A stretch of 64,000 nucleotides of DNA, from contig JACSSC010000026.1 in NCBI GenBank assembly GCA_014879445.1, forward strand, positions 2,033-66,032, given 5' to 3'. Below are positions 5,373 through 64,000 of the stretch, piece by piece. The translations under genes were made by a program, and so were the position numbers. The DNA comes from Candidatus Competibacteraceae bacterium (GTDB lineage Bacteria > Bacteroidota > Bacteroidia > CAIKAF01). Numbering within the stretch: the stretch's first letter is position 1; each line of letters begins with the position of its first letter. The notes beneath the pieces are model-generated. The model made no database searches. It had not been told where the DNA came from and was given only the letters and a program-made list of their open reading frames with translations.

Positions 5373-6419
5373 ATGAAAAAATCATTACTAACATTATTTG
5401 CATTGGGTATGGCTGTCGTAAGTTATTCTCAATTCACTATCGTAAGTGCTGATATGCCTAGTGTAGGTAATATCATCGTAAGACAATCAGACACACTCTC
5501 AGTATTTTTTCCCGGAGCTGCGGGTTCGGGTGTATTGTGGGATTTTACTGCGGCTATAGCGCATGAGCCAGAAACTACATTTGTGGTTGCTCCATCCACT
5601 ACGCCCTTTGCATCAGATTATCCAACATCCAATCTGGCATTTACAAGGGATAATAACAACTTTATGTTTCTTACTAATTCTCCTTCTGGTTTAACCGTGC
5701 AGGGTTTGGGTGGCAACTATATTACCGGAAACGATGTATTGGCTTTTAATCCAGAACTTACCATGTATGAGTTTCCGCTTGCATACAACGACAATATGAG
5801 TGACAACTATGCTGTTGAACTGGAAACCGATGGTTCGTCATTCGGTGTATATAAAATTAAATTCAAAAGGTCAGGCACAGTTGAAGATACAGTTGATGGA
5901 TACGGAACACTTAAAACTCCTTACGGCACATATGAAGCACTTCGGGTAAAAAGACACGAAGTGGCGATTGATTCTGTGTTCATCAAATATTTGAGTGATT
6001 TGGAGCCATGGTCGCTTTTTTATGATAGCAATGCCCCTATGATTACGTATTCTTGGCTCACTAAAGAAGAAAAATTGCCTACAGTAGAAATGACTATGAA
6101 TGCCACAGGTGATACTGCCGCCACATTTGTATTCTCAACTTCAATTGGTACTTTTTCAATCGAAGAAGAAAATTACACACAAGCCATTGTAGCACCCAAT
6201 CCGGCTAACGATTTAACTTCAATATATCTTCCATACTCTATAACGGTAGAAAAGACACAATTTCGCCTGACAGATATACATGGAAAAGTTGTACAAAGTC
6301 GCTTTGTAATGAGTGGGAACAGAATTGATGTGCACCTGGATGCATTGCCTTCAGGCGTTTATATTTACTATATTGAAGGCGGTCCGTTACCCATTACAGG
6401 CAAGCTGATTAAAAATTAA
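5373..6419 (+). CDS. Secreted protein with T9SS type-A C-terminal sorting domain (unknown function)
   Basis: Signal peptide MKKSLLTLFALGMAVVSYSQ. The C-terminal ~75 aa (VAPNPANDLTSIYLPY...GVYIYYIEG...KLIKN) match the Por_Secre_tail pattern. Confidence 0.75.
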   Translation: MKKSLLTLFALGMAVVSYSQFTIVSADMPSVGNIIVRQSDTLSVFFPGAAGSGVLWDFTAAIAHEPETTFVVAPSTTPFASDYPTSNLAFTRDNNNFMFLTNSPSGLTVQGLGGNYITGNDVLAFNPELTMYEFPLAYNDNMSDNYAVELETDGSSFGVYKIKFKRSGTVEDTVDGYGTLKTPYGTYEALRVKRHEVAIDSVFIKYLSDLEPWSLFYDSNAPMITYSWLTKEEKLPTVEMTMNATGDTAATFVFSTSIGTFSIEEENYTQAIVAPNPANDLTSIYLPYSITVEKTQFRLTDIHGKVVQSRFVMSGNRIDVHLDALPSGVYIYYIEGGPLPITGKLIKN

Positions 6420-8242: not shown

Positions 8243-8272
8243 ACAATTACAATATTGAACATGGGTTGTGTC

Positions 8273-9199
8273 CTATTTACTCATACTATTATCAGCTAAA
8301 AATTCTTCATACAACTTATGAATAATTCCATCCGAAAGACCTACTTTAGGAACAAAGATAGATTTGATATCGGCATTTTTGCATATGTGAAGATATATTT
8401 CGGCAGCCGGCACAATGACATCCGCTCTATCTGGATTTAAGCTATATTTTCTTATTCTTGAGGAAATAGATGTGTCTTTAAGTTTTTGATAAATGTCTTT
8501 CAATTGGCTTCGTGTAAATGGATTGCCTTCCGTTTCACCAGATAGTTTTTGTAATTTGATAATATTACCACCGCTTCCAATACCCATAATGTTGGGGTAT
8601 AATTCTTGCAACATCTGACATTGATATTTTAGGCGTTGCCATTCCTCTTTATCGATTTTATCATGTAACATCCGAACTGTGCCAATATTAAAGGACTCTG
8701 CATATCTCTTTTTTCCCTTGCTAAACAATGTAATTTCGGTACTTCCTCCACCCACATCAATATATAGATAGGCCCTGGAATGTGTCAATGCGTCGGCTAT
8801 ATGATTACTGTATATTAAATCCGCTTCCGTTTTACCATCAATAATAGCAATATCAATTCCTGATTGCTCTTTAATAGTGCGAATAATATCGCTTGCATTT
8901 TTGGCTTCACGCATAGCAGATGTTGCACATGCTCTATATCCTTTCACTTCATGAATTTCGATTAGATTACGAAATGCCAGCATTGCCTTTATCAGTTTAT
9001 CAATTTTGGCTTGCGAAACAATGCCATTCACAAATACATCTTCACCCAATCTGATTGGCACGCGGGTAAGCGCTACTTTTTTGAAAACCGAAATTCCCTC
9101 ATCATTATGATAAATATTATAAAACAGAAGACGAACAGCATTACTGCCAATATCTATTGCTGCAAATTTCACATATTCTGGGTCTTCAATCCATTCCAT
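8273..9199 (-). CDS. Ppx/GppA family phosphatase (exopolyphosphatase / guanosine pentaphosphate phosphohydrolase, short form)
   Basis: FAAIDIGSNAVRLL...YIDVGGGSTEITLF actin-like ATPase motifs of Ppx/GppA. The track start (9244) is TTG; an in-frame ATG at 9199 gives an MEWIEDPEY N-terminus. Confidence 0.8.
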   Translation of the reverse strand: MEWIEDPEYVKFAAIDIGSNAVRLLFYNIYHNDEGISVFKKVALTRVPIRLGEDVFVNGIVSQAKIDKLIKAMLAFRNLIEIHEVKGYRACATSAMREAKNASDIIRTIKEQSGIDIAIIDGKTEADLIYSNHIADALTHSRAYLYIDVGGGSTEITLFSKGKKRYAESFNIGTVRMLHDKIDKEEWQRLKYQCQMLQELYPNIMGIGSGGNIIKLQKLSGETEGNPFTRSQLKDIYQKLKDTSISSRIRKYSLNPDRADVIVPAAEIYLHICKNADIKSIFVPKVGLSDGIIHKLYEEFLADNSMSK

Positions 9200-10041
9200 T
9201 TTTGTTGATAATATTGTATTAATTGATTCATGGGATTTTTGCAAAAGTAGCCAACAGATATTTGCTGACTACACACTTTCCTCATTTCATTTTGAAAATA
9301 ATAAGCTACCGAACCGCTGAAATGTGCTGTATTGTGTAGAGGTGTCATGTTTTGATGTTGATAATATCTCAAATGACGGCTTATCAGCATTTGAAATGAA
9401 TGCATAATAGATTGCTGCATATCCGGATGCTGCCGATGTGTATGAATAAATGGTACAAAAGATGCCAAGTAGCGATTTGGAGATAATTCGCTATATACTT
9501 GTTGAATGATATCATCCATTGTGAGATGATATGTATCCCAGAATGCTTGTTGCAAATCTTTGGGCCATTCATTGCGCATATATGAAATTAAAAGTTGTTT
9601 GCCAAGCCATGAACCACTACCCTCATCGCCTAGGAGATATCCACCCGAGGGGGCAGAGGAAAGAATTTTTTGTCCATCCCATAAACATGACGCTGATCCT
9701 GTGCCAACAATAAAAATCAAGCTCTGTTGATTATTCGACAATGCATGAGCGACTGCCATGATATCGGGATAAACCTGTATGATAGAAGAAGGAAAGAAAT
9801 GAGATAAAACATCTTGCATAATTGGTGCAGAAGTAGTATTCACACCGGCACCGTAATAATGCACTTCATCGGGACATATTTTCAAAAAGTCCGCATCAAA
9901 AATCGGTGCAATGCGCCTATGAATATCGTCTTTCGACATTTGTATCGGATTGATTCCATCAGCATCTTTTGTAGAGATATAACCTGGGCTTAGGATAGCC
10001 CAGGTTGTTTTAGTTGAACCTGCATCTGCCAACAATATCAT
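9169..10041 (-). CDS. BadF/BadG/BcrA/BcrD-type ATPase (N-acetylglucosamine kinase family)
   Basis: N-terminal MILLADAGSTKTTWAIL and GTGSA motifs typical of COG2971 sugar kinases. The 3' end overlaps the ppx start by about 31 nt. Confidence 0.8.
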   Translation of the reverse strand: MILLADAGSTKTTWAILSPGYISTKDADGINPIQMSKDDIHRRIAPIFDADFLKICPDEVHYYGAGVNTTSAPIMQDVLSHFFPSSIIQVYPDIMAVAHALSNNQQSLIFIVGTGSASCLWDGQKILSSAPSGGYLLGDEGSGSWLGKQLLISYMRNEWPKDLQQAFWDTYHLTMDDIIQQVYSELSPNRYLASFVPFIHTHRQHPDMQQSIMHSFQMLISRHLRYYQHQNMTPLHNTAHFSGSVAYYFQNEMRKVCSQQISVGYFCKNPMNQLIQYYQQKWNGLKTQNM

Positions 10042-10146
10042 GGCTTAAAAATACGGGTTTCATTTCCTTACCAAGAAGAAAAACAGAGAATTTATTCAAA
10101 TCTTTTCACCATCCCTGTGATAAACAAGGAAAATTTATTCTCAAAA

Positions 10147-11148
10147 TCATTGTACAACCAGGCGAGCCGTATGCATAGTTATCCCTCTTTGCATGTGAAT
10201 AAAATAGATTCCTGATGGCCATGCCGTTAAATCTATTGTTTGGGTTGATGCCTGTGCACTAAACGACATTATTTCTCTTCCATCAGCAGAAAAAATCCTA
10301 ACAAACCCATCATCAATGCCTGATAAAATCACATGATTAGAGGAAGGATTAGGATACAAAGAAAACTCAGTATCAGTCACAAGATCGTTTATGCTCACTA
10401 AGCAAGGAGATTGACAAACCTGCACAGTGCCATGAATGGTACCCAGGTTCAAATCAACGGCATTAGAGCCAGACAAATCACACATATCAAGTGTTCCGGT
10501 AATAATCCCTAGATTTAAACTATTGCCATCAATGCAAATCTGTCCACCACCAAGAATCGTATCTGCATTGGTAAAATCAAGATTAACACGCATTGACCCT
10601 TCCATCTGCAAAACAGCATTCACGCCACTGATTAAGCTGTCACCATTGTAGAAATAATTTCGAATTACCAGTTCTTTAGAGGGGTCTGTAAGTTTAAAAG
10701 TGCCGGTGTTCCAGAAAGATTTTTCGATATAAACATTTCCTGTTGAGAGAAACCCACCGTTGAGAGTAACATTGCTAAACAAAGAATCTGCCTCAAAAGT
10801 GCCATGATTTGATACACGTCCACCAAATAAGGCAGTGCGCTTCACATTATAATACCCATTATTTTCGAGGATGGCCGACCCCCATACGGCAATAGCACGC
10901 ATTGGATTGTCGCCAATCAGTTTTCCTGTACTTGTGATAACTACTGCGCCTGAAGTGTAGCCAAAGTCAGTATCCAAAGTAATCTGGTGCTTAATGACAA
11001 TAGAATCACCGGGCAACGGAATACAAACACAATCCCAGATAAAAGGATTAAGGGCATTGCCATTGGCAACAGATTGTCTAACATTTTGGCTGAACACTGT
11101 TGCGGCAACAAGCATAAAACCTAAAAAAGCAAGTAAACGATTTTTCAT
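10147..11148 (-). CDS. Secreted protein with T9SS type-A C-terminal sorting domain (unknown function)
   Basis: Signal peptide MKNRLLAFLGFMLVAATVFSQ. C-terminus FSLYPNPSSNHVILSG...WPSGIYFIHM...RLVVQ is Por_Secre_tail-like. Confidence 0.7.
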   Translation of the reverse strand: MKNRLLAFLGFMLVAATVFSQNVRQSVANGNALNPFIWDCVCIPLPGDSIVIKHQITLDTDFGYTSGAVVITSTGKLIGDNPMRAIAVWGSAILENNGYYNVKRTALFGGRVSNHGTFEADSLFSNVTLNGGFLSTGNVYIEKSFWNTGTFKLTDPSKELVIRNYFYNGDSLISGVNAVLQMEGSMRVNLDFTNADTILGGGQICIDGNSLNLGIITGTLDMCDLSGSNAVDLNLGTIHGTVQVCQSPCLVSINDLVTDTEFSLYPNPSSNHVILSGIDDGFVRIFSADGREIMSFSAQASTQTIDLTAWPSGIYFIHMQRGITMHTARLVVQ

Positions 11149-11206
11149 AATTATTTATTAAAAATTGAGTATAAAGATATTTGTTTTAGAAATTAAAAAG
11201 AAAAAA

Positions 11207-11623
11207 CTATTCCAACATCTCGTAGTCATCGAAAGTGTCAGAATTTTCAGATTGTTTTGAGTCGGTGGGTGGTTTACGATGAACTTTGATTTCTGTTTTA
11301 AAGAGGGGCTCGGGTTTAAATTTAAGCAATTCGGCAATATCTACTTTCAATGCATGGGCAATTTCCATCAACGTATCAATGGTGAAATTATGTTTGCCAC
11401 TAAGCCATTTGCTGATTTCGGAAGGCGACTTACCCAAAATCGCTGCAAATTCAGATTTGCTTATGCCTTTATTTTTTAGAAAATTTTCGATGTTTTGGGC
11501 CAGGTTAAACTTTGTTTCAACCTGAACTTTCTCCACTTCCTTCATGCCTTCCAGCAAGGCCTTGAGTAAATTATCCCTAAACAAGGATTTTTTTGGTTGT
11601 TTGCTAAACATATCCGATTTCAC
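11207..11623 (-). CDS. XRE-family helix-turn-helix transcriptional regulator
   Basis: HTH_3-like segment ISKSEFAAILGKSPSEISKWLSGKHNFTIDTLMEIAHALKVDIAELL, with an acidic C-terminal tail. The track start is GTG at 11623; an alternative ATG lies at 11611. Confidence 0.7.
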   Translation of the reverse strand: MKSDMFSKQPKKSLFRDNLLKALLEGMKEVEKVQVETKFNLAQNIENFLKNKGISKSEFAAILGKSPSEISKWLSGKHNFTIDTLMEIAHALKVDIAELLKFKPEPLFKTEIKVHRKPPTDSKQSENSDTFDDYEMLE

Positions 11624-12572: not shown

Positions 12573-12594
12573 TTTATACCTTTATACTGTGTTT

Positions 12595-14805
12595 ATGACA
12601 AAGATAACGAATTACACGGGCATTTGTGTATATCTTCTGCTGTTAACAGGGCAACATATCCCTATTTGGTCGCAACTATCCATACATCATGGGGTTACAC
12701 TACCTACACGCGATACTGTTCGGGCATTGATTATTTTTGCCGAAGTAGATTATATGGATGGGCCATGCCCCAAAGACCTTCCCGACGAATTTCAAGGACA
12801 ATGGACACGTCTGCCTGATGGTAGCAGAGGTCTGCCGGCAAATGCGGATATCTATTTAGATCCTATCATTTCTAACCAGCCCAAGGGTTATATTACAAGC
12901 TATTATTACGAAGCATCTTTTGGTCAATATGTACTCCTGGGCGATTATCTTCCTTTTGTGGTTCGTGTTCCCTGTCATCAGATTAAACAAGGGCTCAATC
13001 TTGAGCAAACCTTACGCATCATTGATCAGCGAGCTGATGGTCAACCTCTATCAACGGCTCATGGCATACCTCTCACTTCCTTTGATCTTTGGAGCGAAGC
13101 CCCCCCCGGCCATATCAAGCCCAAAATACCCGATGGAAAAATAGATTTGGTATATCTGATTTGGCGAAATAATCGATTCCTAAGTGGATATAATACATGG
13201 GACAATTCAGGATATGGCGTAACACAAGTCAAAGGTATTCCCTTTTGTGGTATGCAGGGCGTTAATAATGCAGCATCTTTCAACAACTCATGGGGTGATG
13301 AGCATGGGTTTCACATTACCATTGCCGAACATTTACATGCCATATTTGGAGGCAATCACTGGCATTCGGGCGGAGGAAGAGGTATTCATACTTTTTTGGC
13401 AATACCATACAATTATGGATTAACCGGGCAGCTCGAAGCTACTATGCAAGCCGTTTGCGGCTGGGATCGTTGGATGATGAAATGGAAAAATCCAAAAAAA
13501 AAATTCCTGATTTCTGTACTTGATTCTTCATTGATGGAAATAAATACAGAAGATTTTAATATAAAAACTCATCCAACAGGAGGAATGTTTTATTTACGCG
13601 ACCATGTTCAAACCGGCGATGCCATTCGTATTCGACTGCCATATTTCAATTGGGAAAAAGAAGGCGACATCAAAAACCAATATCTTTGGCTCGAATATAG
13701 AGATTTCGCCACCCGATTTGACCAGTACATGAAAACCGGTGAGGCAGAATGTAGCGATCATCATCCTGAATACCCTAATGGCACACCCGGATTATACGCA
13801 TACATTCAAGTTGGCAAGGATCAGCGAGAAGGTGAGCATATTTATCACGCCCGCCCCTCTCTTCCCAATGGATTAGCCAGTTGGCTTCTTCCCCTCACTG
13901 CTGAGGGCAATCATGACTTTCATTATCGGTATGACAAAATACCCGACCCTCTGCCCGGATGTGGCAGCTGGGGCAATAAAACGATTCCGGTTGAATTAGC
14001 AAAAAGTAAACCCAATCCATTCACAGGTCACTCCGACCTTTTTCGTATCACCGATTCCAATCAAGATGGGAAATTATATTCAGGCGACGATCTTCAGCCA
14101 GGGCTGGCAGATATGTGGGGTGATTCGGTTTGGTTTAATTATCATCGCAATGGAGATAAAGATGATGCCTTCTGTTTTAAAAATAAAAAAACCCGCCTTT
14201 CGATTAGTACCAATCCTGCGCCCGTTCCGGTTTACACCTATGCTACCGATTACGAATACAATCAATTTTATTTTACATCCGGTGCCCAGCAAAGTCGTTT
14301 TGAAAACCGCAGTATTGCGCTGAATGGGTTATCTATTGAAATCATAAGGGAAGATGATAACGGTCCGGTAGGCAAAGCTATATTGGTTCATATTAGATGG
14401 GATGATTATGTAGTCAATCAATCTGTACGATGGTGTGGCCATATTGAATTGCGTCCGCATGCATTTAATCCTGAGAAGCCCTCATTAATCTTAGAAAGAA
14501 ACAAAAGCATATTGCTTGACCGTAGCGAATCTCCGACTTATCACACAAACAAAGGGGTTAGTGATAGGGGGATATATTGGTTTTCTGACACTACTGTATT
14601 TGTCGGGCTTCCTGGTGCAAATATCCAACTACAAACAGGTGCAAGAATTGAATTAAAAAATGGAAGTCGGCTTGAACTTCGTGATGGAAGTCAACTGGAA
14701 ATGGGCAAAAAAAGTCGCATTATAATACATCGTGGCTCTGCACTGATACAACATACAGGCGCAAAAATCGTTAAAGCAAAAGGTGCAAAAATTATTTTCA
14801 AATAA
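12595..14805 (+). CDS. Large hypothetical secreted protein (737 aa)
   Basis: The track start (12589) is GTG; the first ATG is at 12595. N-terminal hydrophobic signal, His-rich segment GDEHGFHITIAEHLHAIFGGNHWHSGGG, EF-hand-like loop DSNQDGKLYSGDD, and C-terminal beta-strand-like repeats (GANIQLQTGARIELKNGSRLELRDGSQLEMG). No family recognised. Confidence 0.6.
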   Translation: MTKITNYTGICVYLLLLTGQHIPIWSQLSIHHGVTLPTRDTVRALIIFAEVDYMDGPCPKDLPDEFQGQWTRLPDGSRGLPANADIYLDPIISNQPKGYITSYYYEASFGQYVLLGDYLPFVVRVPCHQIKQGLNLEQTLRIIDQRADGQPLSTAHGIPLTSFDLWSEAPPGHIKPKIPDGKIDLVYLIWRNNRFLSGYNTWDNSGYGVTQVKGIPFCGMQGVNNAASFNNSWGDEHGFHITIAEHLHAIFGGNHWHSGGGRGIHTFLAIPYNYGLTGQLEATMQAVCGWDRWMMKWKNPKKKFLISVLDSSLMEINTEDFNIKTHPTGGMFYLRDHVQTGDAIRIRLPYFNWEKEGDIKNQYLWLEYRDFATRFDQYMKTGEAECSDHHPEYPNGTPGLYAYIQVGKDQREGEHIYHARPSLPNGLASWLLPLTAEGNHDFHYRYDKIPDPLPGCGSWGNKTIPVELAKSKPNPFTGHSDLFRITDSNQDGKLYSGDDLQPGLADMWGDSVWFNYHRNGDKDDAFCFKNKKTRLSISTNPAPVPVYTYATDYEYNQFYFTSGAQQSRFENRSIALNGLSIEIIREDDNGPVGKAILVHIRWDDYVVNQSVRWCGHIELRPHAFNPEKPSLILERNKSILLDRSESPTYHTNKGVSDRGIYWFSDTTVFVGLPGANIQLQTGARIELKNGSRLELRDGSQLEMGKKSRIIIHRGSALIQHTGAKIVKAKGAKIIFK

Positions 14806-17678: not shown

Positions 17679-20600
17679 TTATTTAACCACAATGCGGGTA
17701 ATGGCATTATGCTTTCCGGCCACCACACGAACCAGATAAGTACCGGCTGCATATGAACTGAAATCAACATCTGCTACAAAATAAGCTTGATGTACGCCCA
17801 TATTACGCATCCAAATTACTTTGCCGGCAAGATCCATCACAGATACATATACTATTTCAGTTCCATCAAATGTAAATGAAATACGAGAAAACTCATCTGT
17901 TGGGTTAGGATATACCGTCAACAGCTCTTCTGACTCGCTTTCGATACCATTAAACTGAACATCAATTTCAACCGTTTGAGTAACCGTTGTTGTTCCACAA
18001 TCATTGGTAACGGTCAATGTAACTGTATAAATACCTTCATTGGCATAGATGTGTACCGGATTCATCTCCGTTGATGTATTGCTATCACCAAAATCCCAAA
18101 AATAACTAGTTGCATTGGTTGAAGTATTCGTAAAGGCAGCCGAGTAGAAGCTAACGGAAGACGTGAAACTACCAGAAGGATTAGGAAAATCCGTTACAAT
18201 TACTGTATCAATAGCTAGTCCGCAATTTGAAATTACCTGCACAAAATATGTGGCAGGAACCAATGCGGTAATAGATGGTGTATTTTGGAAGAATGGGCTC
18301 CAGTTGTAAGTTGATCCGGCAATTACAGGAGCAGCAATCAGAACAGAATCAGAAGGACATTTAATCAAATCCGGTCCGAGCGTAAAGCCCGCAACCGAAA
18401 CAAATTCATCAGCGCCAATATCAGGGGTAGATGCATGGCGAGGATCACCGTCAAAATCAACTGAAACGCCGGCTATAGGTGTTGCGGCACCATCCAACTC
18501 GGTACGACAAGTATGAAGATCTGATCCGTTGAAATTAGGATTTAAAGATAAAGAAGCAGCATCAAATCCGGTAGCATTTTGCCAGTCGGCTAATGTAGCA
18601 TAGGTTGTTGTACCTAATGCAACAACATCCGTTCCGGCAACAAACAAGTTGTTATGGTTTGAGTTGGAAATATAAAACGCTGATTCGGAAAGAATGGCCA
18701 ATCCTGCACCGGCATTCATTATATTGTTGTTGATAATATCAATACCATTTGAACTACCATTAAACAAACGCAAAGCGCCCGAAGAAGTTGAAGTGCTTGA
18801 TGAGTAGAGAGAATTAAATACAACCTGAGTATTGCTCACATCTTGCAATGCAATACATTCGCTATAGGTAGGATCAATATTGATTCCCATATACACCATA
18901 TTATTGGCTACTAAAGATGGATTTGAAGGGTTGGCATCTATATTTACCAAATTGATACCAAAACCACCTTGAATACCGCCAACATGATTGCCGGTAACAA
19001 CAGTTCCATCCATAACTTGTTCGAGGTCTATGTGAAAAATATTTCCAATTCCATTTGAGGCAGAAGACATTACTTGATTGTTTCTTATTTCCGGACGAAT
19101 TTGGTTAACCAAAACTATTCCGGCCTGATAATATTGAGATATCGTGTTGTTATAGATTTCCAAACCTGACTCCATTAATACATTGCTTTGGCCAAACAAC
19201 CAAATAGCTCTTGATCCGCCAAAGATTTGATTGTTGCGAATAATAAGGTTATTGTCGTTTCCATCAACAGAGTTGATCGTATGCTTGTTGGCATCTACGG
19301 CAGCAGCCATGGTGTCGCCCATCAGCACACAATTTTCAATGATGATATCCTCTGAACCATTTTTAAGAGAAACTACAGTTGAGAAAAATGCCATATTTTG
19401 CAATGTTATCTCGTTAAGGGTAACACGATCAGCACCATTAAAGCCCACCACAAAGTTATTCGCAGTAGAGAAAGGCATAAAATCAAAAGTTACGTCAGTA
19501 GCATTTTGTGTTTCAGATTGAATTGTCAATCGGTAATTGCCTGCGCCTACTTCAGGGAAGGTGGCGATTTCTACCTGTTCGGTATATGTGCCCGGACGAA
19601 CATTCAAAGTAACATCTCCACATATTCCACGCAGCTCAATCGCATCTATGGCATCATTAAGCGTCGCAAAATCTGGTATTGTGCCATACACGGTATATAT
19701 ACCACTCATAGCGTCATAAACCTGACGAGTAATGGTGTCGTTGCCATCGTATTCGTCAGGATTCCCATTGGGATTCTCTGTCCAGATTTTCACTATATCT
19801 CCATCATTAAAATTGAAATATCCCAAGTCAACTTGTGTCGTTTGGTTTGAAGTCAGCAGCCCAGTCCAGTTGTATGTCATTACTGTAGTATTATTCACAT
19901 TCACTACAATATCAGCGGATGTAAGATCATTAACACCAATGGTCGTCAACAGCACTTTAATCGTATCCTCTACTGAGCAAGAAAGCGAAGGCGAAACAGA
20001 AGGAGAGACGATGGTAGCTATACCGGCGTCATCATTGGGGAGAGGGCGAATATCAACCAAATAATCTTCAGTTTCGCCCCAAGTATAGGTGCCACAAGGA
20101 GTAACTGTAGAAGCACTTCCCGATTCTCTACAAACTACACGCATGCCTGTAACGCCCGTTAAAGCACCCGGCGGAATGGTAATATTACCCAAAACTGAGC
20201 TTTGAGTTAAGGCGCTGGCGGGTCCGCCCATCACCAATTCGGCTGGGTCAGCATAAACGCCATCCTGATTAAAATCAATATACACTTCAACATAGCGACT
20301 ATTAAAACCGGAATTTTCACAATCCCGTGTGCTGATAACTGATGGATAGGATTGAGTTTTGAAGAATGCCGGCACCGGCGTAAGGGTAGTAAAATTCTGA
20401 TATCCGGTACAAACACCAAAACTTTGATTTACAAAAGACCCGATACGTACTGTATCAATATATTCATCAGCAGTAGAAGTAGCATTGGATGCACAATAGC
20501 AATTATAGAATGGCGTAACCATAACCTGTAATGGAGCAGAAGAATCTGTTTGGGCGCTACATGTAGCCATTGCCCTAAAATAAGTACTAGCAGCTAAATT

Positions 20601-21428
20601 AGTACTATAAGTTGCGCTGGTTGCCCCGGGAATGTTTGTCCATGTAATCCCATCAGGCGAAGATTGCCATTGATAGGTTTGGCCTAATCCGCCAGTTCCT
20701 CCAGTAAGTGATAAATACAACATTTGAGAAGGGCAAACAGGATTAGCAGAAGCTGTCGTTACACCGGCTACAGGAGGAGCGGTACAAGGAAGAGCCGGCT
20801 CAACCGTAACAGACCCTGTAAAGTAACGTGGAGTAAGTGTTAATCCCGTACCTGATCCAGAATAACCTACATTAAACCCTGCAATTTGTTGAGTACCTAC
20901 CTTCAAATTTACACCTGCCCCAGAAAAAATATTATTATCTGGAGAAAGAGGAGACCCAGTTCCACTATATCTAACACTTCCCGGACCTTGATTTTCTAAG
21001 GCAAAACGATATTCTGTTGATGCTGGAATTGTGAAACTCAGGCCAACAAAATTAATCGGTGCAATTCCTGAAGCAATAGCTGGTGTTGGAGAAGATGTAG
21101 CAATCAAATTCCAGTTGCCACTTTCACAATTGGTCGTGGAATTAGATAATTCAGTAGCCGTATAAAAAAGACGCCAAACCGAATTATTATCAGCTGTAGT
21201 AAGATAGTTTCCTATTCCTGTGAGCAACATTGGAAAAGGATTAGTATTCTGTATAACAAAAGAAATTTGCCCTCCGGCACCTAGTGAGTTCGTTCCTGTA
21301 TATGGTGGGAAAGGACCTGTTGTAAGTGTTGTCTGTGCTATAGTTACAGATGTAAAAAGCATCATGGCCAGTGCCGATAGACACAAATTGCGTATGCTTT
21401 TATTGATTGTGTTGTAGATTCTATACAT
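17679..21428 (-). CDS. Giant secreted T9SS cargo protein (1249 aa): GEVED-like motif, right-handed beta-helix repeats, PKD domain, T9SS type-A C-terminal domain
   Basis: Signal peptide; CGTYTWGETEDY motif; beta-helix repeat region (NNNIMNAGAG...); PKD signature YFWDFGDSNTSTEMNPVHIYANEGIYTVTLTVTNDCG; C-terminal Por_Secre_tail (LLTVYPNPTDE...GTYLVRVVAG...RIVVK). Confidence 0.85.
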   Translation of the reverse strand: MYRIYNTINKSIRNLCLSALAMMLFTSVTIAQTTLTTGPFPPYTGTNSLGAGGQISFVIQNTNPFPMLLTGIGNYLTTADNNSVWRLFYTATELSNSTTNCESGNWNLIATSSPTPAIASGIAPINFVGLSFTIPASTEYRFALENQGPGSVRYSGTGSPLSPDNNIFSGAGVNLKVGTQQIAGFNVGYSGSGTGLTLTPRYFTGSVTVEPALPCTAPPVAGVTTASANPVCPSQMLYLSLTGGTGGLGQTYQWQSSPDGITWTNIPGATSATYSTNLAASTYFRAMATCSAQTDSSAPLQVMVTPFYNCYCASNATSTADEYIDTVRIGSFVNQSFGVCTGYQNFTTLTPVPAFFKTQSYPSVISTRDCENSGFNSRYVEVYIDFNQDGVYADPAELVMGGPASALTQSSVLGNITIPPGALTGVTGMRVVCRESGSASTVTPCGTYTWGETEDYLVDIRPLPNDDAGIATIVSPSVSPSLSCSVEDTIKVLLTTIGVNDLTSADIVVNVNNTTVMTYNWTGLLTSNQTTQVDLGYFNFNDGDIVKIWTENPNGNPDEYDGNDTITRQVYDAMSGIYTVYGTIPDFATLNDAIDAIELRGICGDVTLNVRPGTYTEQVEIATFPEVGAGNYRLTIQSETQNATDVTFDFMPFSTANNFVVGFNGADRVTLNEITLQNMAFFSTVVSLKNGSEDIIIENCVLMGDTMAAAVDANKHTINSVDGNDNNLIIRNNQIFGGSRAIWLFGQSNVLMESGLEIYNNTISQYYQAGIVLVNQIRPEIRNNQVMSSASNGIGNIFHIDLEQVMDGTVVTGNHVGGIQGGFGINLVNIDANPSNPSLVANNMVYMGINIDPTYSECIALQDVSNTQVVFNSLYSSSTSTSSGALRLFNGSSNGIDIINNNIMNAGAGLAILSESAFYISNSNHNNLFVAGTDVVALGTTTYATLADWQNATGFDAASLSLNPNFNGSDLHTCRTELDGAATPIAGVSVDFDGDPRHASTPDIGADEFVSVAGFTLGPDLIKCPSDSVLIAAPVIAGSTYNWSPFFQNTPSITALVPATYFVQVISNCGLAIDTVIVTDFPNPSGSFTSSVSFYSAAFTNTSTNATSYFWDFGDSNTSTEMNPVHIYANEGIYTVTLTVTNDCGTTTVTQTVEIDVQFNGIESESEELLTVYPNPTDEFSRISFTFDGTEIVYVSVMDLAGKVIWMRNMGVHQAYFVADVDFSSYAAGTYLVRVVAGKHNAITRIVVK

Positions 21429-21492: not shown

Positions 21493-24400
21493 TTATTTAA
21501 TAATAATACGTACTGTTCTTTGATAATCACCAGCCCGAACCTTCATCAAATAAGTTCCGGCAGCTTGTCCTGTAATATCCATCATGGTGCTCAATCCATT
21601 GGTTGCGCTTCCCATTACCGATTGATGTATCAATCGTCCTGACAAATCATAAATATCAATCCAAACCTGATTGCTCACAACAGGTGCTAAGGCAACTGCA
21701 AATAATCCTTCTGAAGGATTAGGATACACCTGAAGCTGCAATGCCTCTTCATCTTCTAGCCCCGCCACATTGGGATTAATCACAATTACTTGAGAAGTAA
21801 CAGATGAATCGCCACAGTCGCTGTAAGCTGTTAATGTTACAGTATATGTGCCATTGGTTGGGTAAATATGATTGGGATTTTCAACAGTTGATGTATTGCC
21901 ATCTCCAAAATCCCAAAAATATGATGTAGCTTGTGAGGAATTGTTGCTGAAAGCAGCAGTAAAGAAGTTTTGATTATATGTGAAAGTGGCTGAAGGTGTA
22001 GAATAATTGGCAACCACAATCGAGTCCACTGAAATACCGCAAGCATGTATAATCTGAACAATATATGTTCCTGGCTGAGTAGCATAAATACCCGGTGTAT
22101 TTTGGAAGTATGGGCTCCAATAATAGGATGCACTTTCGATTTGTTCGGCACCCAACCAAACACTATCTGACGGACATTTTATCAAATCAGCGCCAAGCGT
22201 AAAGTTGGCTGATGATAAAAATTCGTCAGCGCCGATATCTGGCGTTGAAGTATTGCGTGTATCCTGATCAAAGTCGTGAGTTACTCCGGCAACGGGGATA
22301 CCGGCATTATCAAGCTCCACACGACAGGTATGCAAATCAGCACCATTAAACATTGGATCAACAGATAAAGAATTCAGCTCTTTTCCTGTAGCTGTCTGAA
22401 GCGCCGACAAATCGGCCATATTGGTTCCTACCCTAACAAAATTAGCAGAAGAAGTAAAATAATTGTTATGATTAGCTATATCTAAATACAAGGCAGATTC
22501 GCTATTTAAAGCAAATCCACTTCCTGCATTTACAATATTATTATTAAGAAGCGTAATACCTGACGACTGTCCATTATATACTCGAATACCGGCAGCTGTA
22601 GCTGTGGTTGCACGTGTGTGAACAGAATTGAATACAATATTCACATTGGCACATTCCTGTACTGCAATACCATGGCTATTGGTTGGCGAACCGGTAGCTC
22701 CCATATATACAAAGTTGTTAGCAATCAAACTTGGAGAGCCGGGTTGGGCGTCCACATCCAATAGATTAATTCCAAAACCGCCTTGATCGCCGGAAATAAG
22801 ATTTCCGGTTACTTCAGCGCCATTCAATACATCCTCTAAACTAATGTGGAAAATATTAGTGTTTGTATTTGAAGAATGGGATTGAATATTATTTTGCTTG
22901 ATAGCTGGTCCTGTTTGGCGAAGACCCACAATCGCTGCCGCCCTATAACGGCGAAATGTGTTATAAGCAACCAACAAGCCCGATTCAACTTCGGTAACAC
23001 TTGGGCCTGCTAAATAAATACCATACGAGCCACCTATTATGATGTTATGCTCAATTCTAGTTCCATTGTCAAGCCCATCAACTGAGCCAATTGCTATTTT
23101 GTTGGTCGTAGTGGTGGTTGCCAAACTATCGCTATACACATTACAATATTGTACAGCAATATTATTGTTACCACCCAACAATCTAACTACTCCAGAAAAT
23201 GTTGTGGAAGTATTGGCTAAAGTAAGACGGTTCAGTATGATGTTTTGGGATTGATTAAATCCAAATACATAATTCAGAGCTGTCGAAGTGGCCATATATT
23301 CAAAACGCACATCACTGGCATTCAAAGATTCTGACTGAATAGTAACCGTATATGAGCCGGTAGATGGATAAGGACCAACCAGCACTTGCTCATTATAGGT
23401 GCCTGCACGTACATTAAAAAATACATCACCGCAAATACCACGCAACTCAAGTGCTTCAATGGCATCATTCATTGTAGCAAAGTCGGGAGTAGTACCATAT
23501 ACGGTATAAACACCATTAAGCGCATCATACCCGATTACACTCATGCTATCGTTGAAGGCAAATTCATCCGCAACACCATTCGGGTTAGTAACCCAAACCA
23601 AAACCGTATCGCCATCATTCAAGCTAACTGCTCCTAAATTAACAGTAGTAGTTTGCCCTGAGGTAATACTGCCGGCCCAATTGTATGATGTAATAGTTGT
23701 GCCATTTACCGAAACATGAATCGTAGCACTGGTAAGCGTTGCGGTGCCAATTGTTGTAAGTGATACTACAACAAAATCATCCACGCTACATCCTCCAGTA
23801 GGCGGGTTAGAAGGAGAAATAATTTCGGCAATACCTGCATCATTTGCCGGTTGTGGAGCAATATTTACCATATAATCTTCCGTCTCTCCCCAGGTATAAG
23901 TACCACAAGGCATAACTGAATTAGGGTCAGAGCTTTCGAGTAAAACTACACGCATGCGTGTAATACCGGTGCTAGCCGTAACAGGAATGTTAACCACACC
24001 CGTAAAATCTTCAGCCGGAGTGGATGCAGTGGTTGGGCCAAATGCAAATACGGCTTCCTGAGGCAAATCAAAAATACCATTTTGATTATAGTCAATAAAT
24101 ACTCTACCCACTCTTGTATAAGAGCCACCGCATGTGCCCGATCTTACCAAGATAGGGTAAGAAATACCCTGAAACATCACACCAACCGGAGAAGAAACAT
24201 TGGTATAAGTTTCACAAGCAGTTGGTGAAGAAATATTATCAATATTAGATATCTTAACCCTGTCTATCTTAGAATCAGCTGTACTGGTAGCATTTGAAGC
24301 GCAGTAGCAATTAAAAAATGGTTGAAGTGTTACATTCTCAATACTGGTTGTATCACTTTGAGCAGAGCAAGTAACTACTGCTCGGAAAAAGATGTTGGAA

Positions 24401-25215
24401 TTGATGGTCGCATTATAAGTTGAGTTTGTTGCGCCTGAGATGTCGGTAAAAGTAATACCATCAGGTGATGATTGCCACTGATACGTTTGGCCTGAACCCA
24501 TCGTACCTCCTGTAATTGACAGGGTTACATTTGTGCCCGGACAAACAGGATTAGCACTGGCAAGAGCCATGCCTGCGGTTGGGGGTGCCGTACAAGCCGA
24601 ACCCGAGATATAAGTGATTTGCATGGCAGGTCGGGTAAATCCGGGGCCACTTGTAAGTCCGGTTGTCATGCTACACCCAACTTGACCATCATCATACTGC
24701 CCTGCATAGGCATTAAATGCATAATCATCTGACTGCACGGTGCTGCTACCATTCCAAGATGCATTATCAAAACAAACCTCTACAACAATATTATCTGAGC
24801 CATTCCAAATAAAGCTAGTGGCGAATGTGTATGTATTCCATCCCAAAGTTGGAGCAGACACGGCTTGAGAAAAACAAGTTGTAGAAGTTGGCAAAACCCC
24901 ACCAGGGTGAGCGCCCAATGCCGTATGGCCCATCTTAATCGAAAATCCGTTTAGGGGGTCGCCACTTGAAGATGTTACATTAAATCCCAATGCAGTAATA
25001 TTGCTGCTGGGAGTAAGGCCGGCTGACGATAATTCTGATGCTAAAATAATATATTGCACCCTGCCATCCTCCCAAAGTGTACCATAAGGAGTAATGCCTG
25101 ATGAGCCGGTAGTAGATAATCCCGCTCCTATTTGAACGGTTTGCGATAAAGCCGAAACCGATAAAAGTATCGCCAATCCGATTGACATTGATAAACAACG
25201 TAAGATTTTATTCAT
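21493..25215 (-). CDS. Giant secreted T9SS cargo protein (1240 aa), paralog of 17679..21428 with the same domain order
   Basis: Shares blocks with the neighbour: TYQWQSSPDGITF, CGTYTWGETEDY, YTVYGTTPDFATMNDAIEALELRGICGDV, PKD YFWDFGDGNTSTVENPNHIY, and a C-terminal Por_Secre_tail (LQVYPNPSEG...GTYLMKVRAG...RIIIK). Confidence 0.85.
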   Translation of the reverse strand: MNKILRCLSMSIGLAILLSVSALSQTVQIGAGLSTTGSSGITPYGTLWEDGRVQYIILASELSSAGLTPSSNITALGFNVTSSSGDPLNGFSIKMGHTALGAHPGGVLPTSTTCFSQAVSAPTLGWNTYTFATSFIWNGSDNIVVEVCFDNASWNGSSTVQSDDYAFNAYAGQYDDGQVGCSMTTGLTSGPGFTRPAMQITYISGSACTAPPTAGMALASANPVCPGTNVTLSITGGTMGSGQTYQWQSSPDGITFTDISGATNSTYNATINSNIFFRAVVTCSAQSDTTSIENVTLQPFFNCYCASNATSTADSKIDRVKISNIDNISSPTACETYTNVSSPVGVMFQGISYPILVRSGTCGGSYTRVGRVFIDYNQNGIFDLPQEAVFAFGPTTASTPAEDFTGVVNIPVTASTGITRMRVVLLESSDPNSVMPCGTYTWGETEDYMVNIAPQPANDAGIAEIISPSNPPTGGCSVDDFVVVSLTTIGTATLTSATIHVSVNGTTITSYNWAGSITSGQTTTVNLGAVSLNDGDTVLVWVTNPNGVADEFAFNDSMSVIGYDALNGVYTVYGTTPDFATMNDAIEALELRGICGDVFFNVRAGTYNEQVLVGPYPSTGSYTVTIQSESLNASDVRFEYMATSTALNYVFGFNQSQNIILNRLTLANTSTTFSGVVRLLGGNNNIAVQYCNVYSDSLATTTTTNKIAIGSVDGLDNGTRIEHNIIIGGSYGIYLAGPSVTEVESGLLVAYNTFRRYRAAAIVGLRQTGPAIKQNNIQSHSSNTNTNIFHISLEDVLNGAEVTGNLISGDQGGFGINLLDVDAQPGSPSLIANNFVYMGATGSPTNSHGIAVQECANVNIVFNSVHTRATTATAAGIRVYNGQSSGITLLNNNIVNAGSGFALNSESALYLDIANHNNYFTSSANFVRVGTNMADLSALQTATGKELNSLSVDPMFNGADLHTCRVELDNAGIPVAGVTHDFDQDTRNTSTPDIGADEFLSSANFTLGADLIKCPSDSVWLGAEQIESASYYWSPYFQNTPGIYATQPGTYIVQIIHACGISVDSIVVANYSTPSATFTYNQNFFTAAFSNNSSQATSYFWDFGDGNTSTVENPNHIYPTNGTYTVTLTAYSDCGDSSVTSQVIVINPNVAGLEDEEALQLQVYPNPSEGLFAVALAPVVSNQVWIDIYDLSGRLIHQSVMGSATNGLSTMMDITGQAAGTYLMKVRAGDYQRTVRIIIK

Positions 25216-55367: not shown

Positions 55368-56762
55368 CTATTGAAAAATAATCTTACCTGATTGTATGCC
55401 TTCTGCTTGGTTTCTAATTTGATAAAAATAAACGCCTTTGGCAAACCCCCTCAAATCAATATTTGTCAGTTCACCATCTAATTCTTTATAAAAAATCAAC
55501 ACGCCCTGCATGTTATACAAAAGAACAACACTCCCTTGCGTATATGATTTGATAGAAAAAATACCATTGCTCGGATTGGGATAAAAATTCGCACTGTTCT
55601 CTAAATCAAATTCGGAAACAGATAAAATAGCACAAATGCCCGACACTTGTATAGGTGTAGATCTGTCAACTGTTGTCGCATCAGCCAATTGTCCTTTATC
55701 ATTGCGACCACAAGCCCAAACAGTCCCGTCATTTTTCAAAAAAAGCGAATGATTATCTCCTGCTGCAATATCAACAATCTGATTTAAAGAGCTTATTAGT
55801 ACAGGTGATGATTTATCTATCATTGTGCCATCACCCAATTGCCCCTCGCTATTAAAACCACATGAATACACCGTGCCGTCATTTTTTAGATACAAAGAAA
55901 ACTCTGAACCTGCACAAATGGCTATAATATTATTTACTGTATTCACTTGCACGGGTGTTAGTTTGTTTAATGTTGTTCCGTCGCCAAGCTGCCCGTCACT
56001 ATTTAGGCCACATGCCCATACCGTGCCATCATTTTTTAAAAATAATGAATGGAATCCGTCTTTAGAGGCATCTATTGCAATAATGGAGTTTAACGAAGTA
56101 ATCTGTGTAGGAATATGTTTGTTAACCGTTGTTCCATCGCCAAGCTGCCCACTGAGATTGTATCCGCAAGCCCAAACAGATCCATCACTTCTTAAGAAAA
56201 GCGAATGGGCATCCCCTGCAGAAATAGCAATGATTCCACTAAGTGATTGAATTTGAAATGGTGTTGATTGGGCTATAATCGTACCATCTCCTAGCTGCCC
56301 ATCATCGTTATGACCACAGGCCCAAACAGTACTGTCGCTTTTCAAAAACAAGGTGTGACTTTGTCCTGCCGCAATGTCAATTACATCGCTAATGTTAACT
56401 TGAATGAGATTGGGCTGATGAGCAGTTGTCCCATTGCCTAATTCACCATCTCCATTATTGCCACACGCCCAAACGGTACCATCATTTTTTAAATAAATGG
56501 AGTGCGAACTTGCTGCATACACGGCTTTAATGTTGGTTAACGAAACGGCAACAGGATTTGGGTGTGCAGTGAAATCTGATGTACCATTTCCATGCTGCCC
56601 AAAAAGATTTGAACCGCTAATCATCGGCGTACTGTTGCTGCATAGAAAAATGGAGTGATTTGCTCCAGCTGCTATCGATTGTGCATTGACAAACGATGAA
56701 ATAACTGCATTGAGAAATAGTGAAAAACTGATTACTGAAATACTGCTAATTCTTGTTTTCAT
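55368..56762 (-). CDS. Secreted RCC1-repeat (seven-bladed beta-propeller) protein with T9SS type-A C-terminal domain
   Basis: Seven repeats of the form HSLFLKNDGTVWACGxNxDGQLGDGTT. Signal peptide. C-terminal Por_Secre_tail (NFYPNPSNGIFSIKS...GVYFYQIRN...KIIFQ). Confidence 0.8.
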   Translation of the reverse strand: MKTRISSISVISFSLFLNAVISSFVNAQSIAAGANHSIFLCSNSTPMISGSNLFGQHGNGTSDFTAHPNPVAVSLTNIKAVYAASSHSIYLKNDGTVWACGNNGDGELGNGTTAHQPNLIQVNISDVIDIAAGQSHTLFLKSDSTVWACGHNDDGQLGDGTIIAQSTPFQIQSLSGIIAISAGDAHSLFLRSDGSVWACGYNLSGQLGDGTTVNKHIPTQITSLNSIIAIDASKDGFHSLFLKNDGTVWACGLNSDGQLGDGTTLNKLTPVQVNTVNNIIAICAGSEFSLYLKNDGTVYSCGFNSEGQLGDGTMIDKSSPVLISSLNQIVDIAAGDNHSLFLKNDGTVWACGRNDKGQLADATTVDRSTPIQVSGICAILSVSEFDLENSANFYPNPSNGIFSIKSYTQGSVVLLYNMQGVLIFYKELDGELTNIDLRGFAKGVYFYQIRNQAEGIQSGKIIFQ

Positions 56763-62271: not shown

Positions 62272-62461
62272 ATTTCAATTAAAATAAAAATTTAAATATA
62301 CTCAATTTTTATGTTTCGGAAAAAAAATTTGTTAATGGTGATTTTTATTCTGCTCATTTTAATTATTTGTGTTTTTTGGCTGTTATTAACCAACTATGCC
62401 CGATGATGATGCAGCATTTTATCATGCTGCTGTCTTATCCTGAATGTCTTTTTGCCCATCC

Positions 62462-62508
62462 AAAAAAAAGCCGAAATAATTGAATTATTCCGGCTCCTTG
62501 TTTTTTTT
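62462..62508. terminator. Hairpin flanked by A8 and T8 runs; likely a terminator for the minus-strand gene ending at 62522, and possibly bidirectional
   Basis: 12-bp stem gccgaaataatt / aattattccggc with one mismatch and a 1-nt loop, at 62470..62494. A8 lies at 62462..62469 (reads as T8 on the minus strand) and T8 at 62501..62508. Confidence 0.55.
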
Positions 62509-62521
62509 ACTGAAAGGGGTG

Positions 62522-64000
62522 TTAATCCACTTTAATCATGCGTTTTGTTTCCACAATTTTTCCGTCCACCACCAAGCTATAATTGTATAAGCCGCTGCTG
62601 AGATCGTCGGCATATACTATCATACGGCCATGACCGGTTTCGCGTATATCAGTCATTTGGATAACCTGTCCTAAATTGTTGGTAAAGATGAGTTGGGCGC
62701 GTTGTATCCGTTCGGGCAAATACCAGCTAATGGTGGTTTGTTCTTTGAAAGGGTTGGGCGCATTTTGGTTGAGTACTATCATGTCGTCGTTGCGCAGGGT
62801 AACTTCCATTGTATATTCGTGTTGAATATAAGGCTGGGCGTTGTTGTTGACCGGTGTTTGCATGGGTTGCGCCTGATTACAGCAGTTGGTTATCATCCCT
62901 GTAAGTAGTTGCAATTGTTGTTGCATGGATTGCATGAGTGAATCCTGCTGGACAATTTTTTGCTGCTGCTCCTGAAATGCTTCAATCAGCAGAGGAATGA
63001 TTTCTATATAGTTGACACTTTTTACAGTTGTCGCCGCATGAATTACCTGTCCCAGCGAATCGTACACCGGAGCAACCCGGGTATTTTGTACCAGTTGAGG
63101 AAAAACCTGTTCTACCTGTTGTGCTATCAGCCCATAATGACTACCGGCACTAAGGTTTAGTTGTGGTACAGCAGCGTTGCTGTACTCAAATGAGATGGGT
63201 TGCAGTTGTTGTAATTGCTGAGATACATTATTCAGCGATTGAACATTGGTTTTAATCACTGCATCAGAAGGATTTGTGAAAGTACCGGTTACATGTACAT
63301 CTCCTTGAAACCAACCGGCATAGCTAAAACCGGAGTCAATGGGTGCTTCGGCATAAATACCGTATTGAGTAGCACCGGTAACGGCATTGCTTGTAAATTT
63401 TCCTGCATAGTAAGTACTGGAAGTTGACAAACCACTGGCACTCCCTTCAATACCGGTAGTGGTACTACTACCGTTCGAACCACTAAAAAATCCGCCTCGT
63501 GTATGAAAACCGTTGCTGGCAGTTCCATATACACCGATATTATAACTCATGTTTGCATTTGCACTCGCCTGAAAAAAACCACCATAATTGATATTACTAT
63601 TGGTAGGGTTCCCGGTATTTGCCAGGCCCATCACACCGTAATTTACTACCCCTCCGTCTGATGAAAAGTATCCACCGATATGCTTGTTTTTGTTTTCTGG
63701 CAGATCAACCCCATCCGCCATACCTGCTACACCAATATAATAATAAGGACCCTCTAATATAGGCGAAGCAGAAGAATTTCTCCCTAAAACACCGACTGTA
63801 TGATAGGCAACCGGTTGCCCGGGATTTTCCCATACGCTGAGCCGAGCCGGTAATTGAGCAACAGAGCTGGGATACCCGATGCCCACCGAATTGATGCCTT
63901 GCTGTGTAGGGTGTTGGCCTAAGAAATAAACATTATTGTCCATCATGGGAATTTCGCGGTTGTTGAGCAACTGGGCTGGATTGCCTGCTGCATTGATATC
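62522..64000 (-). CDS. Partial CDS (N-terminus beyond window end): secreted protein with a phage tail-fibre-like Gly-rich region, an intramolecular-chaperone (peptidase S74-like) domain and a T9SS C-terminal domain
   Basis: The frame is open from 64000, and the track's M at 63970 is a TTG. Gly/Ser-rich beta-rich middle region. Segment SDAVIKTNVQSL...ISFEYSNAAVPQLNLSAGSHYGLIAQQVEQVFPQLV resembles the tail-spike/endosialidase chaperone signature. C-terminal Por_Secre_tail (NAPNPFKEQTTISWYLP...GLYNYSLVVDG...KVD). Confidence 0.7.
   Translation of the reverse strand, partial: DINAAGNPAQLLNNREIPMMDNNVYFLGQHPTQQGINSVGIGYPSSVAQLPARLSVWENPGQPVAYHTVGVLGRNSSASPILEGPYYYIGVAGMADGVDLPENKNKHIGGYFSSDGGVVNYGVMGLANTGNPTNSNINYGGFFQASANANMSYNIGVYGTASNGFHTRGGFFSGSNGSSTTTGIEGSASGLSTSSTYYAGKFTSNAVTGATQYGIYAEAPIDSGFSYAGWFQGDVHVTGTFTNPSDAVIKTNVQSLNNVSQQLQQLQPISFEYSNAAVPQLNLSAGSHYGLIAQQVEQVFPQLVQNTRVAPVYDSLGQVIHAATTVKSVNYIEIIPLLIEAFQEQQQKIVQQDSLMQSMQQQLQLLTGMITNCCNQAQPMQTPVNNNAQPYIQHEYTMEVTLRNDDMIVLNQNAPNPFKEQTTISWYLPERIQRAQLIFTNNLGQVIQMTDIRETGHGRMIVYADDLSSGLYNYSLVVDGKIVETKRMIKVD

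Follow-up and report, generated by a model that had tools for sequence, protein, structure and literature searches.

We have analysed a 64,000-nucleotide stretch of contig JACSSC010000026.1 (assembly GCA_014879445.1, deposited as Candidatus Competibacteraceae bacterium and placed by GTDB in the Bacteroidia), referred to here as the window. The minus-strand gene at its far end encodes a protein in which a fibre-like β region is followed by a predicted cleavage site, an intramolecular chaperone of the peptidase S74 family with a long helix, a linker, and a C-terminal domain (CTD) resembling type IX secretion system (T9SS) sorting domains. Taken as a whole, the explanation that we consider moderately probable is that this gene specifies a secreted, self-cleaving trimeric fibre of the Flavobacteriales, which carries a T9SS tag and is cut during or after export. 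The parts of the protein and their coordinates are collected in Table 1.

An S74-type domain had been proposed in a preliminary description made from the letters of this DNA, on the strength of the peptide SDAVIKTNVQSL...GSHYGLIAQQVEQVFPQLV (fragment residues 245-303; window positions 63092-63268, minus strand), and the proposal holds. Pfam PF13884 (Peptidase_S74) matches residues 245-304 over profile positions 1-57 of 58 with 46 bits against a gathering score of 22 (E 6.5e-12), a sequence match that is far above chance. The domain carries an intact GLIAQQVEQVFP core, including GLIAQ, and ends in a 44-residue helix (331-374). In the AlphaFold2 (AF2) monomer model, residues 245-375 have a predicted local distance difference test score (pLDDT) of ~90, and a Foldseek comparison of this model with the PDB places the ICA domain of MyRF (7dc3) at the top (E 2.9e-6, target-normalised TM-score 0.77), with further matches to the chaperones of an endosialidase (3gw6) and of GA-1 (3gud). 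Searched against the PDB as a single sequence, the window protein finds only MyRF 7dc3 (E 0.004) and does not reach the mosaic adhesive trimer (MAT) fibres of Bdellovibrio; a family profile, with the window protein as its first row, was needed to reach these and the phage fibres. With this profile, 7dc3 is matched at 5e-13 and the distal subunit of a phage long tail fibre (6f45) at 3.7e-21.

The catalytic dyad is intact as Ser245-x4-Lys250, and its residues align with S587 and K592 of MyRF (position 587 is alanine in the crystallised chain 7dc3). MyRF is cut at P586↓S587, its S587/K592 dyad is the equivalent of S911/K916 in endoNF, residues Y615 and Y617 line the cleavage centre, and cleavage is activated only in the trimer (PMC8326128). 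Aligned on the cleavage site, the window protein reads NP↓SDAVIK and MyRF HP↓SDLRAK, and Phe271 and Tyr273 sit at the positions of MyRF Y615 and Y617. The scissile bond predicted by this alignment is thus Pro244↓Ser245. Among 64 aligned family members, K250 and the glycine of GLIAQ, G290, do not vary, and S245 and D246 are at least 90% conserved. By analogy with these homologues the window protein would form a homotrimer and cut itself at the serine. Since chaperone, linker and CTD all lie on the C-terminal side of the predicted site, a cut made there by the protein itself would detach the fibre from the domain that sorts it, as the preliminary description had supposed.

For the sorting domain itself the outcome is mixed: motif, fold and relatives agree with the proposed T9SS assignment, whereas the protein's own scores fall just short of the curated thresholds. 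AF2 models residues 406-492 with a pLDDT of ~93 and seven or eight strands. The best Foldseek match of this domain is the T9SS CTD of the Tannerella forsythia protease mirolase (8qb1; E 3.9e-4, TM-score 0.65), and a domain of PorU (6za2) is also matched. The PNPF motif is invariant in the family alignment (P415/N416/P417), and a number of positions after it vary little or not at all. Relatives aligned on the same CTD columns clear the Pfam cut-off (P0010 with 29.0, P0025 with 30.2, P0062 with 37.4), and a hidden Markov model (HMM) of these columns matches two above-threshold CTDs elsewhere in the window at 1e-7. These observations support residues 406-492 as a T9SS-type sorting domain, albeit a sub-threshold one in this protein. 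By homology, the window protein would be secreted through the T9SS. Six other proteins encoded in the window carry above-threshold CTDs, which implies that the genome has such a system; none of its core components was identified within the 64 kb.

At the end of the chaperone helix stands a pair of cysteines, Cys373-Cys374 (ITNCCNQ; 62879-62884, minus strand), which recurs in 23 of 75 CTD-bearing hits. Such a pair could cross-link three chaperone-CTD chains by inter-chain disulphides. It may alternatively be part of the linker/CTD module, because it is also found in P0059, a relative that has no S74 domain.

The region upstream of the cleavage site had been described as Gly-rich and typical of fibre shafts, and profile comparisons bear this out. 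It contains repeats of ~30 residues (GGxF ... YG[IV]xG), and PHROG tail-fibre families align from around residue 130 through the S74 domain (phrog_1980 is the best at E 4.9e-17; phrog_5668 and phrog_5481 are similar). Since these alignments extend upstream of S74, the Gly-rich repeats are homologous to the stretch ahead of S74 in phage fibres. The family profile also matches a phage 'putative tail fiber protein' (8jov) over positions ~100-371 at 4e-12 and, over positions 17-188, the trimeric β-helix crystal structure of the Bdellovibrio MAT protein Bd2133 (8ond) at 1.6e-9, with weaker matches to the MAT structures 8ojn (3.9e-6), 8ol4 (7e-4) and 8oml (1.3e-3). Residues 32-244 are presumed on this basis to form the shaft and tip of a trimeric β-helix fibre.

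The fragment opens with a head motif, in full NNG.S....[LF]GQ......G.P..LL.NREIPM..N.YF.GQ, which matches no known domain. In P0017 it comes immediately behind the signal peptide, in P0094 immediately behind an upstream S74 module, and it occurs also in the relatives P0116, P0142 and P0180. We considered this motif (NNG...REIPM...YF.GQ) as a feature of the whole family and rejected it as such: it is present in 29 of 213 proteins and restricted to a subfamily. The fragment comprises one complete fibre unit, consisting of head motif, Gly-rich β region and S74 domain.

The reading frame is open for 493 codons on the minus strand, from position 64000 to a TAA stop at 62522-62524, and yields a fragment of 492 amino acids. 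A mechanical listing of open reading frames (ORFs) gives TTG at 63970 as the first start codon in the window, which is not a genuine start, judged by an orthologue on contig JAOABX010000001.1 (metagenome-assembled genome (MAG) SKW189, Flavobacteriales). This orthologue is 81% identical in amino acid sequence, aligns from residue 1 of the fragment and continues ~530 residues further upstream to a signal-peptide-like N-terminus, MNKMKIKYNFLIVGLITASTFQANSQ. The gene is therefore truncated by the window edge, as had been recognised, and by this comparison the 492 residues in the window are the C-terminal part of a protein of ~1000 residues. Most full-length homologues likewise start with signal-peptide-like sequences. 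A Pfam scan of the N-terminal 500 residues of the orthologue P0003 gave no match. In SKW189 the gene is split into two ORFs (8402-10447 and 10468-11478), the break lying inside the Gly-rich region in an assembly with ~5x coverage; the split points either to a frameshift error or to a pseudogene. Upstream of the orthologue, the product of the neighbouring gene (7440-8387) has a C-terminal end that by eye resembles a type-B (gliding-motility) CTD and is a candidate only, and gene order downstream of the orthologue is not conserved with that of the window. Directly after the stop codon of the window gene there is a terminator-like hairpin with a run of eight U. It was missed by a simple consensus terminator scan and revealed by folding of the region: the RNA of 62450-62525 (minus strand) has a folding energy of -21.7 kcal/mol, with a z-score of -3.35 against shuffled sequences.

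The family to which this protein belongs is large, and its domain arrangement is frequent in metagenomes. Residues 233-492 (S74, linker and CTD) served as query for an exhaustive phmmer search against 1.84 billion cluster representatives at 50% identity, which gave 19,616 matches at E <= 1e-3, 7,687 at 1e-10 and 1,060 at 1e-30. A word-indexed search gave 92 homologues, the best at 61% identity, most of which have PF13884 and PF18962 precomputed together; the few held at NCBI are named 'tail fiber domain-containing protein'. The 145 new best representatives from the phmmer search were scanned with HMMs built from the family alignment. Both S74 and CTD are present in 144 of them, the CTD is at the extreme C-terminus in all 145, and the pattern S[DESN]xxxK is kept in 218 of their 220 S74 modules. 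Around half (75 of 145) are multi-unit proteins, 74 with two and one with three 'fibre segment + S74' units before a single CTD. P0094, for example, has S74 domains at 855-989 and 1141-1287 and a CTD at 1323-1407, P0112 has three S74 modules, and P0002 is also multi-unit; polyproteins of this kind retain an intact SDxxxK dyad in each unit. One multi-unit precursor could thus release several fibre pieces, while the window protein appears to have a single unit.

Where close relatives come from named genomes, these are Flavobacteriales, including Vicingus and Vicingaceae, and the combination of S74 and CTD was seen only in Bacteroidota-type contigs. Relatives from other phyla, such as that of a Chloracidobacterium MAG, have the Gly-rich region and S74 and terminate immediately behind the chaperone helix. 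This makes the CTD look like something that the Bacteroidota alone have added to a fibre module widespread among bacteria.

A plausible course of events can be set out from the domain order. The precursor would cross the inner membrane via Sec, in line with the signal peptides on the orthologue and homologues. The coiled-coil helix of the S74 domain would put three chains in register, and the domain would serve as a template on which the β-helix upstream of it folds, starting at the C-terminus of that β-helix, as in endosialidase, T5 pb1, MyRF and Bd3182. Three CTDs would then pass the assembly on to the T9SS. The trimer-dependent Ser-Lys dyad would cut Pro244↓Ser245, the chaperone, linker and CTD (or a lipid-anchored remnant) would be discarded, and the distal tip of the fibre would be exposed. 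The mature product would be a short trimeric adhesive fibre that is released from the cell rather than tethered C-terminally, unless it is held by its N-terminal part. Characterised S74 fibres expose their distal binding tip once the chaperone has been removed (PMC10769870); the CTD-adjacent end should therefore be the business end, leaving no C-terminal tether. The 'surface' location given in the preliminary description is uncertain, since a cut fibre would no longer be attached to any anchor at its C-terminus. Our weak preference is for a cut, or at the very least a parting of the pieces, that takes place while the protein is exported or afterwards and not earlier, because the dyad is near-universal in CTD-bearing relatives, including polyproteins that share one CTD. 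Cleavage in the periplasm would strand the upstream units of such a polyprotein, since only the last unit touches the CTD.

Several points weigh against this reading. T9SS cargo is usually regarded as folding while in the periplasm, which predicts cleavage before export and is in tension with a cut made during or after it. Trimer formation, self-cleavage and secretion are all read across from homologues and would hold for the window protein to the extent that it behaves as they do. Its own N-terminus, and hence its signal peptide, lies beyond position 64000. The CTD scores below both curated cut-offs (20.8 bits against 27 for PF18962 and 22.2 against 23 for TIGR04183). The AF2 monomer has a pLDDT below 50 over the Gly-rich region and provides no usable model there; this was a single-chain prediction, and such values would be expected if the chains of a trimer intertwine. 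Finally, a sister subfamily of ~400-residue proteins (P0062, P0063, P0065, P0070-72, P0076, P0077 and P0082-88) aligns over the Gly-rich region, the chaperone-like region (e.g. YGLDAEQLKAVYPELV) and the CTD and has lost the dyad. Cleavage is therefore not obligatory for the architecture, and these are presumably its non-cleaving versions. In a separate relative, P0045, cysteine replaces the dyad serine (CDIRLK).

The order of cutting and export can be imagined in other ways. The uncleaved trimer or polyprotein might be exported with the linker and CTD restraining the cut, so that removal of the CTD at the surface triggers self-cleavage and releases one to three fibres from a lipid-anchored chaperone stub. 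We regard such export-coupled autoproteolysis as possible but rather unlikely. It has a parallel in C. elegans MYRF, whose ICA cleavage is reported to be regulated, with the juxtamembrane region and PAN-1 gating the cut (PMC12803276). The opposite order, to which we attach about the same limited credence, has the trimer cleave itself in the periplasm the moment it has folded, the severed fibre then staying non-covalently bound to the chaperone-CTD trimer through the T9SS pore and dissociating outside. Cargo of this system is thought to fold before transport, the S74 cut is triggered by trimerisation itself (PMC8326128), the cysteine pair after the helix could cross-link the chaperone-CTD chains into a handle, and both fragments of Bd3182 are present together after purification (PMC10769870). 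This order fits less well with the multi-unit relatives, which would need several non-covalent joints to survive transport, and the occurrence of the cysteine pair in a protein without S74 makes it perhaps a linker/CTD feature. The chaperones of endosialidase and T5 pb1, moreover, are described as released after cleavage. That the S74 domain does not cut at all, and instead forms a permanent trimerisation base from which the fibre is tethered to the surface through a processed C-terminus, like type-A cargo on anionic lipopolysaccharide, strikes us as quite improbable. The dyad-less sister subfamily, which retains the chaperone-like region and the CTD, speaks for it, as does the ability of non-cleaving serine-to-alanine mutants of endoNF still to fold. 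Mutants of this kind in other S74 proteins also fold (PMC10769870). Against it, the window protein retains SDxxxK in full together with the GLIAQ core, aromatic residues occupy the positions equivalent to MyRF Y615 and Y617, and the conservation of the dyad across the modules of the family, with K250 invariant, is hard to explain without catalysis.

Two further alternatives concern the identity of the protein rather than its timing. The C-terminal β-sandwich might be a binding or capping domain, like the tips of MAT fibres that lack S74, with its likeness to T9SS domains reflecting a generic Ig-like fold; the sub-threshold scores and the many Ig-like folds among the weaker Foldseek matches would fit. 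We think this very unlikely. PNPF is invariant, the domain is always found at the extreme C-terminus, relatives clear the Pfam cut-off, the family CTD profile finds genuine CTDs in the window, and the best fold match is a solved T9SS CTD. Relatives in other phyla lack the domain, and a tip placed beyond the cleavage site would be cut off the fibre. Still more remote, to the point of being scarcely credible, is the idea that the product is no cellular protein and belongs instead, as a structural tail fibre, to a prophage or to the remnant of a phage. It draws on the PHROG tail-fibre matches and on two distant relatives whose loci lie on IMG/VR contigs. The S74 gene, however, comes last in an uninterrupted row of four minus-strand genes, each with a product that has a T9SS CTD, and genes for methylmalonyl-CoA mutase, MutL and rhomboid proteins adjoin this row; farther off, the window encodes aminoacyl-tRNA synthetases, RNase R and a further three CTD proteins. 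No phage structural genes were found among the window neighbours and no tRNA genes in the window context, there is only one S74 gene in the window, and the GC content is 0.42 at the gene and ~0.40 across the window, with no compositional island. The loci of relatives are also chromosomal, one (L016) lying next to another CTD protein and one (L018) consisting of tandem S74+CTD paralogues, and homologues carry signal peptides. Among the INPHARED phages the S74+CTD arrangement was not found, with three marginal S74 matches only. One of the two IMG/VR loci (IMGVR_UViG_3300028888_002997, 7695-8957) lies on a contig classified as viral and encodes a dyad-less relative with an above-threshold CTD, and its neighbours are Fic, FRG, papain-like protease, BspA-type leucine-rich repeat and DUF6734 genes, which are not virion genes. 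A prophage origin was rejected on gene context, the absence of tRNA genes and the unremarkable composition: this is a cellular, chromosomal gene and not a prophage tail fibre.

Table 1. Features of the S74 gene and of other genes for CTD proteins in the window (residues are numbered in the 492-residue fragment)
Feature	Residues	Window positions	Strand	Evidence or source
Head motif DINAAGNPAQLLNNREIPMMDNNVYFLGQ	1-31	63908..64000	minus	translation; opens each fibre unit in closest relatives
Gly/Ser/Tyr-rich β region, ending in YAGWFQGDVHVTGTFTNP	32-244	63269..63907	minus	PHROG and family profile
Predicted autocleavage site and dyad, Pro244↓Ser245-Asp-Ala-Val-Ile-Lys250	244-250	63251..63271	minus	MyRF alignment
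S74 intramolecular chaperone/autoprotease (CIMCD/ICA)	245-375	62876..63268	minus	PF13884, AF2, Foldseek
Q/N/P-rich disordered linker, 30 residues	376-405	62786..62875	minus	AF2 pLDDT <50 at 385-400; composition
T9SS type-A-like CTD, β-sandwich, NQNAPNPF at start	406-492	62525..62785	minus	AF2, Foldseek, motif
Terminator-like hairpin and run of eight U		62458..62499	minus	directly after stop codon
Right-handed β-helix + CTD, 1003 aa		59260-62271	minus	Por_Secre_tail 44.4 bits, above cut-off
NosD/right-handed β-helix + CTD, 689 aa		56892-58961	minus	Por_Secre_tail 46.2 bits, above cut-off
RCC1-repeat β-propeller + CTD		55368-56762	minus	Por_Secre_tail 40.7 bits, above cut-off
Two adjacent paralogues, ~1240 aa, GEVED + PKD + T9SS CTD		17679-21428 and 21493-25215	minus	window
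Small CTD protein		5373-6419	plus	window

Elsewhere in the window, the minus strand at 6599-8242 encodes a 547-residue protein with a caspase (Peptidase_C14) domain, and a 738-residue ORF at 12589-14805 on the plus strand has no Pfam match at E <= 1e-5. The tandem paralogues of locus L018, on a JGI metagenome contig, lie at 8001-9464 and 9595-11109 and are 487 and 504 amino acids long.

The closest characterised relatives are the MAT fibres of Bdellovibrio bacteriovorus that belong to the S74 subgroup, such as Bd3182 (Caulton et al. 2024, PMC10769870). They are cellular proteins of ~1000 residues with signal peptides, a trimeric β-helix and an S74 domain with SDxxxK, and by homology the window family would share these properties. 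For Bd3182, a bacterial S74 fibre, self-cleavage at the serine of SDxxxK has been demonstrated (PMC10769870). MAT proteins of this subgroup end in the S74 domain, whereas the window protein adds a 30-residue linker and an 87-residue CTD; they belong to the Bdellovibrionota rather than the Flavobacteriales and take a different export route, and the relatives of the window protein are often polyproteins of two or three units. MAT fibres also have a conserved β-rich domain of ~130 amino acids right after the signal peptide, while the window fragment begins downstream of its own N-terminus. The MAT paper and its supplements make no mention of the T9SS or of Bacteroidetes (PMC10769870).

Phage fibres with C-terminal chaperones (K1F/endoNF 3gw6, the GA-1 neck appendage 3gud, T5 pb1, S16 6f45) share the S74 fold, the Ser-Lys dyad, the GxIAQEV core and an upstream Gly-rich region with the window protein. 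Unlike them, the window gene does not reside in a phage, its homologues carry signal peptides, a sorting domain follows the chaperone, and similarity to phage genomes is marginal. MYRF/MrfA (ICA, 7dc3) provides the best solved structural match and a near-identical cleavage-site sequence, and it has the same topology: a self-cleaving trimeriser lies between an N-terminal functional part and a C-terminal targeting or anchoring element, and the cut frees the N-terminal trimer. It differs in being eukaryotic, with a DNA-binding passenger and a transmembrane-helix anchor in place of the fibre passenger and T9SS CTD of the window protein. With canonical type-A CTD cargo (RgpB, mirolase 8qb1) there is a shared C-terminal β-sandwich of ~85 residues, with PNPF and a flexible linker before it, and the window gene itself lies among CTD cargo genes. 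To our knowledge, no characterised T9SS cargo has a self-cleaving module that severs passenger and CTD without recourse to the PorU sortase. Aureispira GhpA, a cargo of the T9SS, has been described as forming a heptamer outside the cell (PMC12428579). In the literature on S74, intramolecular chaperones or tail fibres combined with T9SS we found no paper on an S74+T9SS fusion; a T. forsythia 'tail fiber domain-containing protein' is listed, without comment, in an outer-membrane-vesicle proteome (PMC10682907).

In conclusion, the protein joins two known modules, the S74 chaperone standing ahead of the sorting domain, and the family is large, visible in databases and apparently uncharacterised. 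As regards the window itself, this amounts to an annotation with good support and not to the discovery of a new principle, and the domain pair is already present in the precomputed Pfam annotations of public proteins. Since the S74 domain cuts only in the formed trimer, a T9SS cargo with S74 placed before its sorting signal would report its own folding state at export. This poses a mechanistic question, namely how a passenger that severs itself from its own export signal is exported, and whether the T9SS moves pre-assembled oligomers. Were autoproteolysis coupled to export, release would be self-timed and independent of PorU, a bacterial counterpart of the MYRF strategy of trimerising and then cutting loose from the membrane. 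The family would extend the recently described concept of Bdellovibrio MAT fibres to another phylum and another secretion route, and it probably represents a widespread class of surface or released adhesive fibres in the Bacteroidota.

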